From assembly GCA_963667255.1 (NCBI GenBank), contig OY762940.1:608001-672000 (forward strand): 64,000 nucleotides of DNA, in the 5' to 3' direction. The notes under the pieces are model-generated. The model saw only the letters and a list, made by a program, of their open reading frames with translations, did not search any database and was not told the DNA's origin. Numbering within the stretch: the stretch's first letter is position 1; every line of letters begins with the position of its first letter. The DNA is from Candidatus Cloacimonadota bacterium. GTDB taxonomy: Bacteria; Cloacimonadota; Cloacimonadia; G963667145. This document shows, one piece after another, positions 49,582 to 64,000 of this stretch. The position numbers and the translations under genes are program-made.

Positions 49582-50457
49582 TCAATCCGCTTTATGTTCA
49601 AAATCGTGTGGTTCCACATGCACGGTGGCGATTATATCAAATTGTTTGAAAACGATTTCCTCAATGCTCGTGGCGATGTGATGACCTTTCTCGATACTCA
49701 GATTTTTGTCCAATTTTATATGAAAAGTAATCTCGCGGTGATTTACATAGTTGTGAATGTGAAAATGGTGAAGTTGTAGATTTGTGCCGAAATGTGTAGT
49801 GGTTGCCTCTTTTATTTTTGCGATTAATTCGGGTGTTGGCTCTTCCCCCAAGAGTTTACGAATGGCTTCGTGGGCAATCTGTATCACAGCGTAGAAAAGC
49901 ATAAGCGAAATGACAATTCCCAAGGCACTGTCTATCCACCAAAATTTCTTGGCAAACATAATACCGACCAAGACAACTACCGAAGACAAGGAGTCCGAGC
50001 GATGATGCCATCCGTCAGCTTTAATGCTTACATTTTCGGTTTTGCGAGCCAAGTAAAAGGCAAATTGTGCCAAAAGTTCTTTGGTGATTATGGATACAAC
50101 GGTCACAGCAATGGCGATAGTGCCGAATTTTGCTGCCTGATGTGTTTGGAAACGAGCGATGGCATCACAGACGAAGCCGAAAGCTATAAATCCCAATAAA
50201 AAGGCGATAAACAGAGCTGCGATTTGCTCAAAACGACCGTAACCAAAGGGGTGCTTGTCGTCAGGTTTTTTGGCGGAGAGCTTTGTGGCGACAATCACGA
50301 CGACGGAACTCAGAGAGTCGGACAGAGTGTGCCATGCGTCAGCCGTCAGGGCGATGGAGCAGGTCGTAATTCCTGCCCAAAATTTAAGAACGAACAGAAG
50401 GCAGTTGACTATTACAGAGACTATCCCTTCCCAGTATCCAGCTTTTGTAGTGGTCAT
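49582..50457 (-). CDS. Cation diffusion facilitator (FieF-like) metal transporter
   Basis: ADAWHTLSD, HPFGYGR.E, ADGWHHRSD, HVEP. Confidence 0.92.
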   Translation of the reverse strand: MTTTKAGYWEGIVSVIVNCLLFVLKFWAGITTCSIALTADAWHTLSDSLSSVVVIVATKLSAKKPDDKHPFGYGRFEQIAALFIAFLLGFIAFGFVCDAIARFQTHQAAKFGTIAIAVTVVSIITKELLAQFAFYLARKTENVSIKADGWHHRSDSLSSVVVLVGIMFAKKFWWIDSALGIVISLMLFYAVIQIAHEAIRKLLGEEPTPELIAKIKEATTTHFGTNLQLHHFHIHNYVNHREITFHIKLDKNLSIEKGHHIATSIEEIVFKQFDIIATVHVEPHDFEHKAD

Positions 50458-50459
50458 GT

Positions 50460-51110
50460 TTATTTTCTTCCATCAAATAAAGTTTGTAATTTATTAGCAG
50501 TTATAGTTTCAAATCCTTTTATTTTCGCTTTATATTCTGTTGCAATATCGAGATTTTCAATTTCTTTTTTCCTGCAAATACTGATGTCTAAATATGCTTT
50601 TTCTATATCAATCCCTAAAAATTTACGCTCTGCAAGATTTGCCGCAATACCAGTTGTACTGCTTCCTGTGAATGGGTCTAATATCCAAGCTCCTTTTTGT
50701 GTTGAGGCAAGTATTAACCTTGTAAGTACTGACAAAGGCTTTTGTGTGGGATGTTTAGTACACGATTTTTCCCAAGGAGCAATCGCTGGTAAAGTCCAAA
50801 CATCTTTCATTTGTTGATTGTTATTCAAGTATTTCATTAAGTCATAATTGAAGTAATGAGGAATTTTTTTAGATTTTCTTGCCCAAATAATTTGTTCTGT
50901 TGAGTATGTAAAATATCGTTTGGAAAAGTTTGGTGGAGGGTTTGTTTTTTGCCAAGTAACAATATTTAAAATTTTGAATCCTAATTCTATTAAAATGTGT
51001 CCAACACTAAAAATATTGTGCATTGTACCACTAATCCAAATTGTAGCGTTGTCTTTCATTTTATCAATAGCTAATGTTAACTATTTAAGATTAAAATCGT
51101 ATTTAATTAT
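50460..51110 (-). pseudogene. Truncated beta-class adenine DNA methyltransferase (DpnA/M2.DpnII-like)
   Basis: TIWISGT.HNI, W.KTNPPPN, STE.IIWARK, HPTQKP, ILDPFTGSSTTGIAA are present but the catalytic DPPY motif is absent; upstream of ATG 51059 the frame reads DFNLK*LTLAIDK, with an in-frame TAG at 51083-51081. Confidence 0.8.
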
Positions 51111-51334
51111 GTAACTTGGTCAATAATCCACATCCAATCTTCATACATTGATAAAAAAGAACCAAAATCAATCTTATATTCTATTCCATCAATTCCTTCA
51201 TCAATTAAATATTTGCCTTTTTTATACATAAAATGTGTCGCATAACACCCATAACCCAATACTAATTGAGCTTCAATGTGTTTTGATGGATTGCGTGATA
51301 TAAAATCTAATAATTCTTTAGTTGAGATTCTCAT
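51107..51334 (-). CDS. Hypothetical 75-aa protein
   Basis: AT-rich ORF starting 2 nt after the DpnI stop. Confidence 0.55.
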   Translation of the reverse strand: MRISTKELLDFISRNPSKHIEAQLVLGYGCYATHFMYKKGKYLIDEGIDGIEYKIDFGSFLSMYEDWMWIIDQVT

Positions 51335-51336
51335 TT

Positions 51337-52116
51337 TTAATATTTATTATTGTTTATTTTTTTATAACTTCCTCTACCTTTAAATTCAATAATTCCTTTA
51401 TCCCTAAGAATTTGTAATTGCTGTCTAATCTTATCTTTGATAAAGTTGTTGTTGGGATATTTTTGTTTCAAATTTTCTTCGAAATAATACATACTCTCAA
51501 GAGAGAAATCTTCAGTTGGGATAGTATCAACACACTTCATAATATCAAGAATCCATCCTTTTGATTCTTTCTTTTTATCTCTCAGAAATAATGTTTTTTC
51601 AAAAGATTGAGTTACAATTTTGGGGTCAATTATTTTTGTATTTTTAACTAAAAAGACCTTTCCTGCATTTGCAACTTTTGAAATATTTATATTACAGACA
51701 ATCCATCCTGCTCTTCTTGCTGTTTCTTTAAGTGGCGGTCTTTTAATAATAATTTCTTCTGTGAAAAATTGTTTTGGTATTATTAAGAAGTTTTCAACTT
51801 TCCAATTTTTTGAATATGTGAGAAAAAAGAAATTCGGATTATTTTCTGAGTTTATTCTTTCAATCATTGTTGAATAAGCACCATCTGTAATAGTAGTAGA
51901 TAATTTGCCATTTTTGCTTTTTAATTCAAATTCTTCTTTGCAATTATTACAAAAAAAATCAGCAACAGGGCTGTTATTTTCAAATTCATTCAATGGGATA
52001 TTTCCACAATGTGGACAATATGAGTTGTGCAATACCCAATCTTCTGTTAATCTCCGTGCTATTTGAGAATTGCTTTTATAACCTTCTGCTAATTTCAAAT
52101 TAAAATCTAAATTCAT
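51337..52116 (-). CDS. dpnC: DpnI-family (Dam-replacing) methyl-directed restriction endonuclease
   Basis: YKS.SQIAR.LTEDWV....YCP.CG, N.PVADF.C..C.E.FELKSK, DGAY.TM..R, C-terminal winged-helix YP.NN.IKDKIRQQLQ.LRD.G.IEF.GRG.Y. Confidence 0.92.
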   Translation of the reverse strand: MNLDFNLKLAEGYKSNSQIARRLTEDWVLHNSYCPHCGNIPLNEFENNSPVADFFCNNCKEEFELKSKNGKLSTTITDGAYSTMIERINSENNPNFFFLTYSKNWKVENFLIIPKQFFTEEIIIKRPPLKETARRAGWIVCNINISKVANAGKVFLVKNTKIIDPKIVTQSFEKTLFLRDKKKESKGWILDIMKCVDTIPTEDFSLESMYYFEENLKQKYPNNNFIKDKIRQQLQILRDKGIIEFKGRGSYKKINNNKY

Positions 52117-52305
52117 TTTGAAGATTTATTCGGTTGATGGGATAAGTATATGATATTCATTTTCCCACTTTTGCACATAATAGTTCAAAAAAGACCATAT
52201 ATCATTTACCTCTTCGCATATATTGATTCATTTAAAGATAATTTTATTCTATTGCTCACTTATTGGTTAATTTCTCTCTCTTCGTCAAGAAATAAATCTT
52301 CAAAA
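52116..52305. repeat. Perfect 15-bp inverted repeat flanking a 160-bp segment
   Basis: TTTTGAAGATTTATT at 52116-52130 and its exact reverse complement AATAAATCTTCAAAA at 52291-52305. Confidence 0.85.
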
Positions 52306-52317
52306 AACAAATTTTAT

Positions 52318-52369: not shown

Positions 52370-52657
52370 TTGATGCCAAGAAATCGTAAAATCAGAAAAT
52401 GTAGATATCTCGGAAAGGACAGAGTGTTCAAGCCATTGGGATTCCCAGGGTGCGAACTCGGAGAAGTTGTAATTAGTTCCGAGGAGTTCGAGGCACTCAG
52501 GCTTTGCGACTACGAAGGTTACAGTCAGATAGAGGCAGCCGAGAAGATGAACATTTCCAGAGGGACATTGCAGCGAGATTTGGCATCTGGTTCCAAAAAA
52601 ATATTAGAGGCGATTTTGAACAATAACTTATTGATAATCAAGGGAGATGAGGTGTAA
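52370..52657 (+). CDS. DUF134 (UPF0251) HTH protein
   Basis: MPR.RK.R, FKP.G, EEFEALRL.D.EG.SQ.EAA.KM.ISR.T.QR.L. Confidence 0.9.
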   Translation: MMPRNRKIRKCRYLGKDRVFKPLGFPGCELGEVVISSEEFEALRLCDYEGYSQIEAAEKMNISRGTLQRDLASGSKKILEAILNNNLLIIKGDEV

Positions 52658-57373: not shown

Positions 57374-58654
57374 ATGTCGGAAATTCCCAAGATTGTTTCC
57401 ATTATCTCCTTCGGTTGCAAAGTCAATAGCTACGAGTCCGCCTGTATAGCCGAAGATTTTTCCCAAAAATACAAAGTAGTCTCCAAATATAACGCTGAAG
57501 CTGTGATTTTCATAGTCAATACTTGTGCTGTAACCGCCAGAGCAGGAGCAAAATGCAGGCAGACTATCCGCAAGATTTTGAAACTCAAGGAAGTTAATTC
57601 GCGAGTGGTTTTAGTAGTTACGGGATGTTTGGCGAATGTGGAATCGGATTCCTTGAAAGAGATAGGAGATATCGACTATTTTATCAAAGACAAGTCGCAG
57701 ATTTTCAATATTGTTCACGATTTAGAAAACCCAGTCCAATCCACTGGCTACATTGAGCAGAAAACGAATAAAATGTATAATCGCACGCGTGCTTTTGTCA
57801 AAATTCAGGACGGTTGCAATTTTTTTTGTGCGTATTGCATTATCCCTTACGCGCGGGGTGTCCCAACTTTTCGTGATTTTGGCGATGTCATCAAGCAGAT
57901 AGAGATTCTTGTCGAAAATGGCTATCGCGAGGTTGTTCTCGGTGGCATCAATATTGGTTTGTATAACTATCACGGGAAAAATCTTAAGGATTTACTTTTT
58001 GCCATAGAGGAAATTGCCGGTCTAAAAAGGATGAGGATTTCGTCCATCGAACCGCAACATGTGAAGTCGATTTGGAATTTTATTTGCTCCAGTAAGAAGC
58101 TTGTTCATCATCTGCATATTCCCTTGCAATCGGGCAGTGATGAGATTTTGCAAGCTATGGGCAGACGATATGAGGCGAAGGAGTTTGAGGATTTGGTCGA
58201 AGATTTGAAGAAATTTGATTCTCATTTTGCTATCGGTTGTGATGTGATTGTGGGTTTCCCAAATGAGAGCGAGGAGAATTTCCAAGAGAGCTATTCGTTC
58301 ATCAAGAAATTACCGCTTTCCTATTTGCATGTTTTCCCATACTCTTTGCGGAGAGGCACGAAAGCAGCAGGAATGAACGGGCATTTATCCCAAGAAATAA
58401 AAAAGAGGAGAGCCCATCTTTTGGGAGAGTTATCGCTAACAAAGAAAAGAGAGTTTGCGGAGTTGCTCATCAAGGATAAGGTTGTTCTAACCGCACAATT
58501 GGAGCAGAAGAAAGGGAACTATGCGACAGGTGTCAGCGACAGATATTTGCCAGTTTATGTGGCGGATTTACCCGCAGATGGCAGAGAGGTGCAAATTTTG
58601 CCAGGTACTCTATTCAATGACGGTGTGCTTGGGAAATGGAATGGCTTAAAATAA
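57374..58654 (+). CDS. mtaB: tRNA t6A37 methylthiotransferase (MiaB-like radical SAM)
   Basis: FGCKVNSYES, NTCAVT, VTGC, KIQDGCNFFCAYCIIP..RG, R.RISSIEP, HLHIPLQSG, HVFPYS.R.GT. Confidence 0.9.
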   Translation: MSEIPKIVSIISFGCKVNSYESACIAEDFSQKYKVVSKYNAEAVIFIVNTCAVTARAGAKCRQTIRKILKLKEVNSRVVLVVTGCLANVESDSLKEIGDIDYFIKDKSQIFNIVHDLENPVQSTGYIEQKTNKMYNRTRAFVKIQDGCNFFCAYCIIPYARGVPTFRDFGDVIKQIEILVENGYREVVLGGINIGLYNYHGKNLKDLLFAIEEIAGLKRMRISSIEPQHVKSIWNFICSSKKLVHHLHIPLQSGSDEILQAMGRRYEAKEFEDLVEDLKKFDSHFAIGCDVIVGFPNESEENFQESYSFIKKLPLSYLHVFPYSLRRGTKAAGMNGHLSQEIKKRRAHLLGELSLTKKREFAELLIKDKVVLTAQLEQKKGNYATGVSDRYLPVYVADLPADGREVQILPGTLFNDGVLGKWNGLK

Positions 58655-58686
58655 GCACTTACAACCATTTACCCAAATAGAAAGTT

Positions 58687-59142
58687 TTATCCAATAGTAA
58701 TAGTATAAGCTTGCTCACCTTCAATATGTAAATTTGGTTTGCTTCCATCAAACCTAAAATATTTACAGCCTTTACACCTATCAATACCATGGTTTCTTTG
58801 AGAGAGACATCCTAAACAACCACCGTGAAATATTATGTTAGGGTTATTACCTCTAATTACCTTAGCATCAGGTAGGTACTTTTTATACATTTTACTACTA
58901 TTTTGGTCTTTCCAAATATGATAATCTATGTAGTCATTATCTCTCAAAGAATCACTATCACCATATCTACCATCAATTTTTTCAGCAACCCAAATTTGCT
59001 CAAACTTATCTTCCTTAATAAAACTACTGTCTATATTCAGGCTTGTTTCTCCCAATTCCGTAGGATTACTATCTATAACAACATGTATATCACATTGCTT
59101 AGTTTCTGTCTTTTTACCAAATAATCGTTTAATCCAATTCAT
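58687..59142 (-). CDS. Hypothetical protein with C-terminal CxxC...CxxC
   Basis: AAGGAG RBS; GGCLGCLSQR...RCKGCKYF; AT-rich. Confidence 0.65.
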   Translation of the reverse strand: MNWIKRLFGKKTETKQCDIHVVIDSNPTELGETSLNIDSSFIKEDKFEQIWVAEKIDGRYGDSDSLRDNDYIDYHIWKDQNSSKMYKKYLPDAKVIRGNNPNIIFHGGCLGCLSQRNHGIDRCKGCKYFRFDGSKPNLHIEGEQAYTITIG

Positions 59143-59262
59143 TTTATCTCCTTAAATTTGTTCTTAATTCCGCAACGTGGCATACACAAAACGTTCTTTA
59201 TAAATAGGGGGAAAATTACTTTTTAATCTCGTTTGTCTTTTGTATCCAATTTGTTGTTTCTA

Positions 59263-60924
59263 TTACACAAAGCCAACTTTAGTTGCCGTGTTACTTAAAG
59301 TTTCATCAGTACAAAAGCCCATCAATTTTGAAAATGAAACTTTCTCATTATAAATTATTTCATGGATTTCATTTTTGCGGAAAATATTATCAATTTGGCC
59401 ACTCGAGAAATCAAATTTTTCTGCCAATAAATCACAATTCTGTTGAGTTAAAAAAGGCAATTTTAGTTTCCAAATTTTTGATCTAACATCAATATTAGGC
59501 TTTTGGAATTTGATTTTAAATAAAAATCTTCTTTCAAAAGCAGAATCGAGATTATTTGATAGATTTGTAGTTGCTATCAAAATTCCTTCAAAATTTTCTA
59601 ACTCTTCCAGAAGAATATTTTGTATCGCATTTTGAGTTTGACCAGTACTGGAAATGTTGATGTCTATTCTTTTAGAAATTATAGCGTCAGCTTCATTAAA
59701 AAATAGAATAGGTACCTTAGAGCAATCTTTTGAATAAAAATTATAATCAGTAAAAATTTGTTTTACTATTTTTTCACTTTCTCCAAACCACATTGATTTT
59801 GATTGGCTTAAATCTACATGAATTATCTCTCTTTTGGTTTCTCTAGCTATCTGTTTCACTATTTCTGTTTTGCCAGTGCCAGGTGCTCCATATAGCAGAA
59901 CAACAATTCCTTTTGGCAAATTTTTCTCTGTTAAACGTTTTTGGGTACTTTTGAATTTTCTTTCTTTCAATAAATTTTTTAATAGGTAAAGTTGTTCCAT
60001 CTCTGTGTTGCTAAAAATTAATTTTCTTGAGGGTATTTTATCAGAGAAAATTATGTTTTTTTCATTTTTTTTATTAATGGTTATATTGATTCCACATTCT
60101 TTAAGTAAATTTAGAGAAAAATCTGTGAGAGCAACTTGTGTATCTTGCACAAATCTTGCTTTTACAATTTCGATTAAATTTTGTTCTATAAGAACATTTT
60201 CCCCAGAGCTAATTTTTTGTAAAATTTCCACCACTTTTACAGTTTTATCATAGATTATATCTATAACTCTTCTAATTTCAAAGCTTTTAGTTCCTCGCAT
60301 TGTATTCCAAATTAAATGGACATATATGTAAAAATTTTCAACATCTAATTTTAAAGAATTTATCTTTTTTAATAGAGGAAAGTGCTTGTTCGCTTCTCTT
60401 ATCTCTTCAACAGTTTCAAAAAATTCTTCGGTTGTAATATTATCATCATCGCGATTATATAATGCTTGTGAGAAGCTCGACAAAACATCATAAATATTAG
60501 AAATCTCATTTTCTTTTATTTGGGGAATAGGCTTATTCTGGATAATTGCTCTAGATATTTTGCTATTTACTCTATATAAATGTTTGCATATTCTACCTTT
60601 TACTACAGCATTCCAGAAAGGTCTTAGTAAAATACCAGAGCGAATTAGATTTAAAATTTCTTCTTGAAACTTAAAGATTTTTACTGTGCTACAACAAAAA
60701 TGGTCGGCTAACTCCTTATAAGTTGGAGATTCTTCTTGAGATTCAAAAGCAAAGATAAGAGAAATAAAAAAAGCTTGTATTTTATTAGTTTTGAATTGTT
60801 TTGCAAGGTAGGTTAATTCAGGGTCTATCTTTGTAAAAAAAGTTTCCTCTAACTTAGAATCATTAGATTCTTCATAAACTTTTTCTATGGTTTCTATAAT
60901 TATGAATTTACCTTTTTTTGTCAT
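59263..60924 (-). CDS. AAA+ ATPase with long N-terminal region
   Basis: Walker A GAPGTGKT, SMWFGESEK, variant Walker B ILFFNEAD, ATTN....LD.AFERRF. Confidence 0.9.
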   Translation of the reverse strand: MTKKGKFIIIETIEKVYEESNDSKLEETFFTKIDPELTYLAKQFKTNKIQAFFISLIFAFESQEESPTYKELADHFCCSTVKIFKFQEEILNLIRSGILLRPFWNAVVKGRICKHLYRVNSKISRAIIQNKPIPQIKENEISNIYDVLSSFSQALYNRDDDNITTEEFFETVEEIREANKHFPLLKKINSLKLDVENFYIYVHLIWNTMRGTKSFEIRRVIDIIYDKTVKVVEILQKISSGENVLIEQNLIEIVKARFVQDTQVALTDFSLNLLKECGINITINKKNEKNIIFSDKIPSRKLIFSNTEMEQLYLLKNLLKERKFKSTQKRLTEKNLPKGIVVLLYGAPGTGKTEIVKQIARETKREIIHVDLSQSKSMWFGESEKIVKQIFTDYNFYSKDCSKVPILFFNEADAIISKRIDINISSTGQTQNAIQNILLEELENFEGILIATTNLSNNLDSAFERRFLFKIKFQKPNIDVRSKIWKLKLPFLTQQNCDLLAEKFDFSSGQIDNIFRKNEIHEIIYNEKVSFSKLMGFCTDETLSNTATKVGFV

Positions 60925-60956
60925 ATAATGAACTCCTTTATTTTATTATGAAAATG

Positions 60957-61313
60957 CTATTTTTCTTTTATTTTTTCGAGACAATATTTGCAGTCCTCCT
61001 CAGAAATTTTCCCTTGATCTTTGAATGATGTAAGAATTGGCATTGCAAAGTCGTTGGGTAAAGTATGCCAAGTTGGATATCCTCTAGAGTTTGGATCTCC
61101 GATTTTTGACCAAAACCAACGTGTTGCCAACCTGTGGCTTCCTTCCCACAACAATAGAGCCAATGCCCATCTATTTTTTTCATCTATATAAATTATTTTT
61201 TTGACAGATGAAATTTTTTGTCTGGGGAAATTAATCAGTTTAGCATTTTCTTCTGTAACTTTAATCCACCCATCTTCGTCTAATTCAAAACCGTATTTTT
61301 TAAGATCTGCCAT
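60957..61313 (-). CDS. Hypothetical Trp-rich 118-aa protein
   Basis: AAGGAG RBS; W.LA.L.WEG...LA.RW...G.PNSRG.PTW..LP. Confidence 0.7.
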   Translation of the reverse strand: MADLKKYGFELDEDGWIKVTEENAKLINFPRQKISSVKKIIYIDEKNRWALALLLWEGSHRLATRWFWSKIGDPNSRGYPTWHTLPNDFAMPILTSFKDQGKISEEDCKYCLEKIKEK

Positions 61314-61328
61314 GGCTTATCTCCTTTT

Positions 61329-62012
61329 TTAGTGTTTTTTCCACATTTCACAAATATTTTTTATTGCTTCTAAATATTGATTATAATTTGGTATAGAAGG
61401 ATGCTTTATAGAGTGAATAATGGATTTATTCAAATTGGTACTCTGTTTATATTTGAGAATATTATCACCACTCATTGCATTGAAACTATTACATCCTGCC
61501 TTTCCGCCTATAATAATTATGTCAGCTTCTAAAGCCTGAATTTCAGCATATATTTTCTTTCCGAGACAACTTTTCCCACTATCAATAATTGCAGTATAAT
61601 TTTCTCTTTTTGTTGAATTAGAAGTTGGACGTATATTATAATAAGTGATTTTGTTCAAAGTATCATTTTCTATACTCTTAATATTGTTGTAAGCCTCTTT
61701 CAAATCTTTTCTTGTAGGTTCTTTTCCTTTTTCTAAGCAATCCAATACTACTTTAGCAAAAGCTAAAGAGTATCTTACGGTTCTTGTTCTTGTGTTGCCT
61801 TTATCATTTAGCCAATCGCAGAGAGTCTTTTTACCAACATCAAAAATCTTACATTTTTCATATCCGTAAGGCTCTTCATTGATAATTAAAACTTTAATTT
61901 CTTGCTCCCAAAACAAATTTGAGATAGGACTATAAAACATATGATGCTCAATATGTCGTTGATCAATAAACTTTTTTGTTTCTTTTCTTGCATTTTTAAA
62001 AATTTCCTCCAT
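61329..62012 (-). CDS. Hypothetical protein, uracil-DNA-glycosylase-like fold (tentative)
   Basis: KVLIINEEPYG, YYNI, EI..L.ADIIIIGG and C-terminal HPS follow the UDG-superfamily motif order; start set to ATG 62012 after GGGAGG. Confidence 0.55.
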   Translation of the reverse strand: MEEIFKNARKETKKFIDQRHIEHHMFYSPISNLFWEQEIKVLIINEEPYGYEKCKIFDVGKKTLCDWLNDKGNTRTRTVRYSLAFAKVVLDCLEKGKEPTRKDLKEAYNNIKSIENDTLNKITYYNIRPTSNSTKRENYTAIIDSGKSCLGKKIYAEIQALEADIIIIGGKAGCNSFNAMSGDNILKYKQSTNLNKSIIHSIKHPSIPNYNQYLEAIKNICEMWKKH

Positions 62013-62174
62013 TAGTTCCTCCCATATTTTTATATTAAACCAGAGAAAGAATTCGGAGAAAATTGTCAACATAAATGATAATCTTTATTATAACTGACGT
62101 CAGCATAATAAAACTCTTATTTTTTTAGTTTTATTAGAAGGGTCGTTTACTATAAAAACAATAGAATAAGTTAC

Positions 62175-63539
62175 TTATCGGAAGGTTTTATTTAGGGGGT
62201 AAAATTTTTTCAAACTGATGTTGATTGAGGTGTATTTTTTGATTTCGCTCAAATAGATGAGGTTGTCTTCGGTTCGCAGTTGACAGCCAGTAAAGGTTTC
62301 GACCTCAAAATTTCCCATAATTTCCAAAACGATTTGGTCTATGTCAAAATTGCTGGCAACCTCAATAATATTTTTATCGGTAACGAATTTCAGTTGTTTG
62401 CGTTTTTTGAGCCAAGTTTTTATCTCTTTTTGGCTATCAAAATAAATCTCCGGATTATGCCCGATTTTGACTATTTTTTTTATTAGATTAAGAGAATATT
62501 TAATGTCATACAAATCTGAAAATCTGAAAGAAAATCCGATAGCTCCATTGGTTTGATATGCATAATCTATGAGCGACGAAATTTGGGTTTGAGCTGAGGA
62601 TTCATCCGCTATTTTATAATCTCCATCCATCAAGTCTTTGCTGGAAAAGGAAGCAAATAGTTCCTCTTTTTCGGATGGGAAAAAAATGTTCTTTTTGACA
62701 GGCAAATTCTCTGTATCGGCTTTTACCAGATTTTTGTTTATTCGGAAGAGCTCTTTTTTTACCTCTAAATTTTCGGGGTCAAAATTGCTGTTGTTTTTTA
62801 GTAAACAGTAGGTCAATTTGGGAATGGCTTCTAATAAGTAAAAATTCCAATATGGTTCATCATTTTTGAAATTGAGGGTAAAGTATTCTTTGATGGCTGA
62901 AATCGGATGCGAAAATAGATTCTTGATAATTTTCTTCAATGTTTTCGAATAGCTTTTCCATTTGTAAAGTCTGTCAATTTCTGCAATTAGGGATATAGCG
63001 AATTTTTCGTTGTTAGGCCACATTTTTTTGCGTATCATACAATGGTCATCATCGACACACTCTTCTATGAAGGTTAAAAAGTTGTTCAGCAGTAAGTTGC
63101 AGATAGGTTTATTGGAGGAATCTACTTGATAAGTGGAAAACTGATAGATATTACCAAACAAATCGAAATTGTAAAAAAAACATCTCGTAAAATCGTCTTT
63201 CTTTTCTTGGATGTCAGGAGGCATAGGGCTCAAAACATGGAATGTAGAGAACTCTTTTTTTAATTTCTTAGATTCTGCTTCGGTCAATTTTTCGTATAAA
63301 TCGGGATTGAATGAAACAAAGAAGATGTTGGAGCATTTGCAGTATTTTATCAAGTCGGTAATTTCACGATTTTTGGGTCGATTTAGCGAATAACACATCA
63401 GAATGTCGTCCTCTTCAATCTCCATAAGTCCTGCAATAATCTCGTGTTGAAAGCCCAAATATTCAAAGCTGAGGTCCAAAACTTCCGTTATTTTTTCTGT
63501 ATAAGTTTCTAATTTTTCGTCAATAATAAGTTTTATCAT
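62175..63539 (-). CDS. Hypothetical protein, degenerate polysaccharide deacetylase-like
   Basis: WPNNEKFAISLIAEID resembles the WP..K.FA..LTHDVD segment of deacetylase-like proteins; start tentatively ATG 63539. Confidence 0.45.
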   Translation of the reverse strand: MIKLIIDEKLETYTEKITEVLDLSFEYLGFQHEIIAGLMEIEEDDILMCYSLNRPKNREITDLIKYCKCSNIFFVSFNPDLYEKLTEAESKKLKKEFSTFHVLSPMPPDIQEKKDDFTRCFFYNFDLFGNIYQFSTYQVDSSNKPICNLLLNNFLTFIEECVDDDHCMIRKKMWPNNEKFAISLIAEIDRLYKWKSYSKTLKKIIKNLFSHPISAIKEYFTLNFKNDEPYWNFYLLEAIPKLTYCLLKNNSNFDPENLEVKKELFRINKNLVKADTENLPVKKNIFFPSEKEELFASFSSKDLMDGDYKIADESSAQTQISSLIDYAYQTNGAIGFSFRFSDLYDIKYSLNLIKKIVKIGHNPEIYFDSQKEIKTWLKKRKQLKFVTDKNIIEVASNFDIDQIVLEIMGNFEVETFTGCQLRTEDNLIYLSEIKKYTSINISLKKFYPLNKTFR

Positions 63540-63691
63540 AAGTCCGTTTGTTTGAATTCCGTAGATAACTTGTTTTATTTGCAAATAATAATAAGAGCCA
63601 ACACAAACAAAAAAAAATCGATTTAACTGCCGTCAAGTAAAATTTGTGTTGACATTGCTTACTTGGGTGTTGATGTTGTTACAATTGAACG

Positions 63692-64000
63692 ATGAGTGTA
63701 TTAATTGATAACCGAACGGATTTCAAAATTAGTTGCAAGAGATTAGAGCAAATTTATGAAAAAGCTGTAAAGATTGGGGTTTTGCCAAAGGGTTATGAGC
63801 TTGATGTTTGCTTGTGTGAGAGCGATTTTATTTGCCAATATAACAAGGATTATAGAGGGTTGGCAGCTAAGACCGATGTTTTGTCTTTTGAGTTGAGTGA
63901 ATTTGCGGGGAGTGTTCTTATTTGTTTGGAATATTTGTGGGAAAGAAGTGGAAAGGAGCAGTTTGAACAGGATTTATTTTCCGTGTTTGCTCATGGCATT
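63692..64000 (+). CDS. ybeY: rRNA maturation endoribonuclease YbeY; partial, runs off the window
   Basis: Hand translation MSVLIDNRT...YNKDYRG...KTDVLSF...VFAHGI; not in the ORF track. Confidence 0.85.
   Translation, partial: MSVLIDNRTDFKISCKRLEQIYEKAVKIGVLPKGYELDVCLCESDFICQYNKDYRGLAAKTDVLSFELSEFAGSVLICLEYLWERSGKEQFEQDLFSVFAHGI

Follow-up and report, generated by a model that had tools for sequence, protein, structure and literature searches.

In Streptococcus pneumoniae, alternative DpnI (dpnC-dpnD) and DpnII (dpnM-dpnA-dpnB) cassettes are found at one locus (PMC12707154, PMC3812788, PMC4687349). In Neisseria, a DpnI-like gene known as drg (dam replacing gene; NmeBII, Ngo0007) is inserted in the dam locus, where it truncates dam (PMC4269198). 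Helbrecht et al. 2024 described an ‘avoidance of genomic conflict’ in which adjacent 4mC/6mA methylases are in ‘some cases’ inactivated by frameshifts (PMC11037411). The PD-(D/E)XK–wH enzymes of that study, FcyTI and Psp4BI, belong to the same family as the nuclease considered here, and CP064983.1, which the paper names, is locus L051 of the present analysis. The occurrence of DpnI beside an inactivated methylase is therefore already in print and the principle is established; the available text of the paper concerns frameshifts and mentions neither two-sided clipping of dam and dpnA, nor this lineage, nor a Gly140 variant (PMC11037411). A search that covered mainly the open-access literature turned up no paper that takes the clipping of dam–nuclease–dpnA operons on both sides as its subject.

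The locus analysed here lies in a window of 64,000 nucleotides (the whole stretch of DNA that was studied) from a Candidatus Cloacimonadota bacterium whose genome (G000) is a single 1.59-Mb contig that is 98.9% complete; five genomes of the same genus (G001-G005) were compared with it. As in S. pneumoniae, a DpnI nuclease with a small downstream gene is associated with a DpnA-like methylase, and GATC-restricting and GATC-methylating states occur within one genus. Unlike the pneumococcal cassettes, which alternate at one locus, the DpnI gene lies inside a clipped operon of the order dam–nuclease–dpnA, its passenger is not DpnD, Gly140 has been lost, and the sites differ between species. Alternation at one chromosomal site was not seen across the six species-level genomes, and a minority allele is present in the source sample. 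The locus resembles Neisseria drg in a GC content lower than that of the host and probably in having a DpnI-like gene at a truncated dam locus, and differs from drg, where dam lies beside leuS, in that a two-methylase restriction-modification (R-M) operon appears to have been clipped on both sides, with only a probable scrap of dam left (PMC4269198). This dam-like scrap measures 24-32 bp in the window; the placement of DpnI within a truncated dam locus is clear in G002 and in 42/87 DpnI loci. We favour, with moderate confidence, an interpretation in which the 1.8-kb low-GC block is what remains of a dam–nuclease–dpnA operon that likely methylated GATC, and in which DpnI and a passenger ORF likely took the place of its middle part; the substitution of Val for Gly140 is predicted to impair this DpnI.

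The boundaries of the foreign block (50458-52280) are defined by comparison with the syntenic region of G001, with similarity ending at 50457 and restarting at 52281. The block occupies a variable cargo site and has a GC content of ~26-33% per 500-bp bin, versus 39% genome-wide. Both flanking genes lie outside the cassette: a cation-efflux (CDF) gene on the minus strand (49582-50457; PF01545, PF16916) that is common to G001, and a DUF134 gene on the plus strand (52370-52657; PF02001) that heads a conserved operon and is present in 5/5 same-genus genomes. A perfect 15-bp inverted repeat (52116-52130 and 52291-52305) flanks the 160 bp that separate the start of dpnI from the region upstream of DUF134, and no inverted form of this segment was seen in the two sequencing runs that hold the stretch. 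Promoter and terminator scans of the locus returned chance-level signals only. A second AT-rich stretch (26-36% GC) is found at 58500-64000 of the window, after a tRNA cluster and a gene at 57374-58654.

The nuclease gene (51337-52116, minus strand) has an open frame and encodes a 259-aa protein with both DpnI Pfam domains over their cut-offs, the N-terminal PD-(D/E)XK domain (PF06044, 265 bits) and the C-terminal winged helix (PF17726, 122 bits), which confirms the full-length DpnI-family gene of the original prediction. The protein also matches the PADLOC model of a methyl-directed REase (E 3e-118), and the R.DpnI structure 4esj aligns with it over residues 1-254 (E 9e-106). The alignment retains the catalytic residues D53, E64 and K66 and the methyl-binding cleft residues L129, R135 and W138. 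DpnI passes the family cut-off in only 3/232 genomes of the phylum, and in a quick tree with weak support the window protein nests among Bacteroidota-type proteins.

The residue that packs against Trp138 is Gly140 in 84/84 homologues and in R.DpnI, and is Val in the window protein (codon GTC, 51699-51697, minus strand), where it constitutes the sole deviation among 111 columns conserved at ≥95%. Position 49 is Ser, versus Arg/Lys in 81/84 homologues. Since 52/84 homologues deviate in at least one conserved column, a single deviation of this kind is not in itself a sign of decay. Structural work describes Gly as required at position 140, where a C-beta of any kind would clash with Trp138. The W138A mutant of R.DpnI loses nearly all activity, L129A and R135A retain partial activity, and the enzyme is fairly robust to cleft substitutions (PMC4117772). 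The available text of that paper reports no G140 mutant (PMC4117772). Because Gly140 is invariant and is described as required for the methyl-reading Trp138, the window enzyme is quite likely to be impaired, as far as the alignment can predict. Loss of Gly140 bears on whether the enzyme is active and not on its descent from the R.DpnI family, and the word ‘intact’, which the original prediction applied to the nuclease, is true of its reading frame only. In practice, DpnI genes called intact should be checked at Gly140, and the natural Val140 variant is a test of the structural claim made for this residue.

Downstream lies a 5′-truncated, DpnA-like beta-class methyltransferase sequence (50460-51098, minus strand) that corresponds to residues ~75-272 of a 296-aa relative in G001, with 79% identity. 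Its open frame (199 aa, ATG at 51059; 50460-51059, minus strand) matches PF01555 starting only at model position 43. The SAM-binding motif is retained and DPPY is absent, as was originally reported, with ~74 first codons missing relative to the G001 protein. The in-frame TAG (51083-51081, minus strand), said to stand where homologues have Trp, falls at conserved Trp80, which is W in 95/95 homologues. Upstream of the remnant the frame reads stop-PSYIIKYDFNLK-stop-LTLAIDKMKDNATI. Homology to the whole G001 protein starts only at residue 75 (window ~51098), nine bases past the stop of the 75-aa ORF, and therefore the DPPY region has been deleted and not merely cut off by the TAG. On this alignment the ORF is to be regarded as a remnant, not as a working DpnA-like member. 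The frame is stop-free over 199 codons and deviates at 4 of 100 conserved columns, a pattern that fits recent damage, and neither a second dpnA copy nor the missing 5′ part of dpnA was found elsewhere in the G000 genome. We assign the remnant to the second methylase of GATC-type operons, with GATC specificity suggested by gene context and not by a characterised homologue.

On the other side of the nuclease, ~30 bp upstream of dpnI, is a probable scrap of DpnM/dam (52144-52175, minus strand; 24-32 bp, ~codons 85-95), of which 22/24 bases match the dam of locus L057. The match is weak, with a score of 38, where the best of 120 GC-matched control segments reached 36, and an nhmmer E of 0.007 in a search of a 400-bp region, but it lies in the expected place and on the expected strand. 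Next to it is an 11-bp repeat of sequence from upstream of DUF134. The 75-aa ORF between DpnI and the methyltransferase remnant is present as predicted (51107-51334, minus strand). It has no Pfam or PADLOC family, a word search returns only the ORF itself, and its Atlas scores are <0.8; it represents a small unnamed family of passengers with 52 other proteins at E≤0.001. A homologue lies directly behind DpnI in L086, and another ahead of a clipped dpnA in L187. In L086 (2538-4955), DpnI and the homologue have a MutH-like gene on one side and, on the other, a beta-class methylase from a different subfamily that is clipped at its C terminus; this is the same cassette in another operon type.

The possibility that the TAG or the truncation was a read or assembly error, which the original prediction had named among its own refutations, found no support. 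Between 50200 and 52600 there are zero differing letters or indels in the Logan contigs that hold the stretch in both runs; the runs belong to a single sample and study from which this DNA may itself have come, and are not independent support. With the two runs of one sample agreeing letter for letter, sequencing error was rejected as the origin of the TAG, the truncation or G140V, and an assembly slip at the cassette is unlikely. Run X1 also holds a minority contig (2646 bp, depth 3.5 versus ~70) that joins 50457 to 52311 via 2562 other letters, an alternative close in size to the intact operon of G001 (2392 bp) plus a leader. No 90% match of this contig to the dpnA remnant is found among the matches listed or in the depth table, and therefore it is not the direct parent allele. 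On a 5085-bp contig of run X2, two matches of 19-21 bases (52292-52312 and 51947-51965) are separated by ~1 kb more than they are in the window, which may be due to chance.

The arrangement of GATC-type systems varies among the six congeneric genomes: one has an intact dam–MutH-like–dpnA unit, two have dam with another nuclease, two have DpnI wrecks and one has none. The intact unit is that of G001, where dam matches DpnM (2dpm, E 2e-50) and the nuclease is a 202-aa MutH/Sau3AI-like protein. G002 carries a 31-codon dam stub, DpnI, DpnD and a dpnA that lacks 32 codons. In G003 (L129:1501-3601) and G004 (L130:1495-3601), an intact Dam-family gene precedes a DUF6996/6997/7226 nuclease, which gives the genus a third arrangement of the GATC type. 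The site beside DUF134 holds five unrelated genes in G001, another R-M island in G004 and other genes in G002, G003 and G005. Conversely, the G000 site that corresponds to the operon of G001 is occupied by an unrelated frameshifted gene (two ORFs, 599998-600779 of contig C1), which presumably resembles an acyl-ACP thioesterase, and the site of the G002 cassette is empty in G000; a cassette remnant at either site was accordingly rejected. In quick trees with weak support, dpnA of G000, G001 and G002 forms one group that also takes in a single outsider (SH-aLRT 85), and the G000 and G002 DpnI proteins are paired (support 94, long branch); the divergence of dpnA and DpnI among same-genus copies is similar to that of flanking genes. 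These observations fit genes that have long resided in the genus, within which the swap could well have occurred.

The original prediction interpreted the locus as a DpnII-to-DpnI switch in which DpnI displaced part of a GATC-methylating system, and it proposed a search of relatives for an intact methylase with a DpnII-type nuclease. The swap itself is real and recurs elsewhere, but a switch at this site is not demonstrated, as the relatives carry unrelated cargo here and have their Dpn cassettes elsewhere. The search did find an intact operon in G001, at another site and with a MutH-like nuclease. Displacement of a GATC-methylating system agrees with the presence of the remnant's subfamily in dam–nuclease–dpnA operons; DpnII as the displaced nuclease is not upheld, that of G001 being MutH/Sau3AI-like, and the lost nuclease may have been of either the DpnII or the MutH-like type.

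The recurrence of clipped operons is evident from two sets of loci. The best 80 of at least 138 metagenome loci of the dpnA subfamily, with the whole G001 protein as query, contain a full DpnII (36 loci), a partial DpnII (6), a MutH-like nuclease (1), DpnI (7), a HARE-HTH nuclease (7) or none of these nucleases (23). With the window DpnI as query, the best 80 of 134 genome loci include 43 with a dam and/or dpnA piece, 29 of them with both, and 37 with neither. In the 87 DpnI loci of the two sets combined, dam is broken in 42/42 and dpnA in 38/40 (by alignment ends) or 37/40 (by a motif-based rule), counts that express association and overstate independence because the loci are related and the two sets come from different queries. 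In the other 73 loci, which lack DpnI, the judged end of dam is intact in 39/42 (alignment) or 37/42 (motifs) and dpnA is intact in 54/71, and several of the 17 ‘broken’ dpnA calls are probably diverged N-termini. The swap of DpnI into methylase operons is real and recurrent. Exclusion between DpnI and dpnA is not absolute, as a whole-looking dpnA is kept in two to three DpnI loci (L093, and L089 or L073 and L103 depending on the rule). At L093, the whole-looking dpnA (1736-2620) lies ~880 bp behind a DpnI that has no conserved-column deviation; a Dam-family gene was not found in that genome (G032), and DpnA alone may be tolerated beside DpnI.

Breakpoints vary among the loci, with dam ending at residues 25-288 and dpnA starting at residues 1-211. 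Breakpoints cluster at dam residue 282, immediately ahead of the last strand, and fusion to a Flavo-1 repeat is frequent there; Flavo-1 RNA was detected in 2/7 and 13/20 chosen DpnI loci. The Flavo-1 motif (RF01705) lies on the opposite strand between the clipped dam and the dpnI start, as in L055 (3912-3997) and 14 other DpnI loci, and the dam frame often reads through it to stop 1-3 bases ahead of the dpnI ATG. Flavo-1 may mark a recombination point or may maintain translation coupling. No Flavo-1 RNA was found at the window's locus (L047).

These patterns can be accommodated by a model based on incompatibility. We infer that an active GATC m6A methylase and an active DpnI cannot share a cell, in which case only events that clip both methylases would survive. 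Clipping would remove the final strand of dam together with the beginning of dpnA, after which more sequence would be lost; here dam would have been reduced to scrap and dpnA would have lost DPPY. The block probably reached the variable site already as a unit, or moved there once the swap had occurred. A nuclease with wild-type residues would cleave G(m6A)TC in incoming DNA and spare the unmethylated host chromosome. The Val140 enzyme probably cuts poorly or not at all, so that the cassette would appear to be in late decay. The suggestion that defence had been turned against methylated DNA is not supported for the present genome, since its DpnI carries G140V, which makes full activity doubtful.

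With regard to host methylation, searches of the 98.9% complete genome found no DpnII, MutH, C5 methylase or DpnM-type dam, and DpnII, MutH or a C5 methylase elsewhere in G000 was therefore rejected. One Dam-family gene in G000 passes TIGR00571, and the genome holds further methylases. Over its length, the Dam-family protein shares 41% identity with a methylase from a Psychrobacter plasmid, an enzyme shown to be GAWTC-specific, and both genes adjoin DUF3883. The G000 protein keeps residues that we take to be Dam-like recognition residues; despite these, it is probably a GAWTC methylase, and a conflict with DpnI was judged unlikely because its closest plasmid homologue is GAWTC-specific. GAATC/GATTC is depleted to 0.59 of expectation in G000.

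GATC occurs 552 times in G000 versus 6172 expected (0.09), and samples of 27-28 kb from G001-G005 give 0.10, 0.23, 0.26, 0.51 and 0.55 of expectation. Six palindromes fall below 0.2 of expectation in G000, namely ACGT (0.03), GCGC (0.03), GGCC (0.06), GATC (0.09), GTAC (0.15) and CTAG (0.19). This pattern of palindrome avoidance varies among the five relatives sampled, which suggests fast turnover of restriction systems in the genus. Depletion of GATC is general among DpnI carriers, being found in 38/42 of them (PMC4687349). For both of these reasons, it was rejected as proof of a recent switch. The depletion shows a long exposure of the genus to GATC systems and not its present state, because ACGT, GCGC and GGCC are lower still where no C5 methylase was found.

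One alternative to a block that arrived as a unit is a replacement on the spot, in which an active DpnI took the place of the 5′ part of a GATC system already resident here and both alleles persist in the population as in pneumococcus. The preserved operon order, with dam scrap upstream and the dpnA remnant downstream of dpnI, would be expected from such an event, as would the deep depletion of GATC, the grouping of same-genus DpnI and dpnA copies in the trees and a minority allele of near-operon size in run X1. We nevertheless consider it unlikely: G001-G005 carry unrelated genes beside DUF134, the minority contig has no 90% match to the remnant among the matches listed, other palindromes (ACGT, GCGC and GGCC, 0.03-0.06) are depleted more strongly without a C5 methylase, and G140V speaks against full activity. 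The substitution likewise makes it improbable that the cassette is fully functional, with Val140 tolerated and the methylase remnant carried as inert baggage. All catalytic and methyl-cleft residues are present in an open frame, and the window DpnI is 77% identical to the DpnI of Flavobacterium cyanobacteriorum at locus L067, which we take to be FcyTI. Active FcyTI has been purified from that species (PMC11037411), and the L129A and R135A variants of R.DpnI are partly active (PMC4117772). Against this stand the invariance of Gly140, the predicted clash of a C-beta with Trp138 (PMC4117772) and the change to Ser of a second, nearly invariant position, Arg/Lys49.

The remnant might also never have been a GATC enzyme, in which case a methylase of another specificity (for example GANTC, CcrM/HinfI-like) would have been stacked beside DpnI by chance at a cargo hot spot. 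The site does accept unrelated cargo, and the nearest NCBIfam model of the dpnA-like protein is CcrM, with 172.9 bits far below the cut-off of 830. This explanation is very improbable given that DpnM-like dam and DpnII genes precede the relatives with ~60-80% identity, that the partner dam in G001 matches DpnM, and that the same subfamily adjoins the nuclease in 40/87 DpnI loci. If the wreck of a GATC-methylating operon is the correct reading, this Candidatus Cloacimonadota genus joins the lineages that alternate between GATC-methylating and methyl-GATC-cutting states, and such alternation is relevant to their gene flow and to the range of their phages.

Clipped methylases may also serve as a genomic flag for new modification-dependent nucleases. 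A ~240-aa protein, placed by Atlas in HARE-HTH / NmeDI_C clusters (score 0.98), lies between a clipped dam and a clipped dpnA, without DpnI, in L187 (422-1141) and L229 (1468-2208). Two-sided clipping is the signature expected of a methyl-directed nuclease, which makes the protein a candidate for this activity. HARE-HTH domains more likely sense cytosine marks (PMC11037411). An even sample of 401 genomes included 6 with a HARE-HTH nuclease, of which 0/6 had dam or dpnA within 1.5 kb; the nuclease was thus rejected as a constant partner of clipped operons, and the link holds for part of the family. Tentatively, and with considerable doubt, the middle of dam–nuclease–dpnA operons might be a general landing slot for methyl-directed nucleases, including the HARE-HTH + NmeDI_C type, and the window might represent the last stage of a cycle (methylating, then methyl-directed, then a disarmed nuclease) with a different allele still in the same population. 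If true, HARE-HTH + NmeDI_C would add a new architecture to the m6A-dependent restriction enzymes. In five other loci (L204, L206, L208, L211 and L217), the HARE-HTH/NmeDI_C protein occupies the position of dam and is followed by a broken DpnII gene and a dpnA that looks whole. HARE-HTH/NmeDI_C loci carry DpnD-like or 75-aa passengers, the 75-aa homologue being that of L187.
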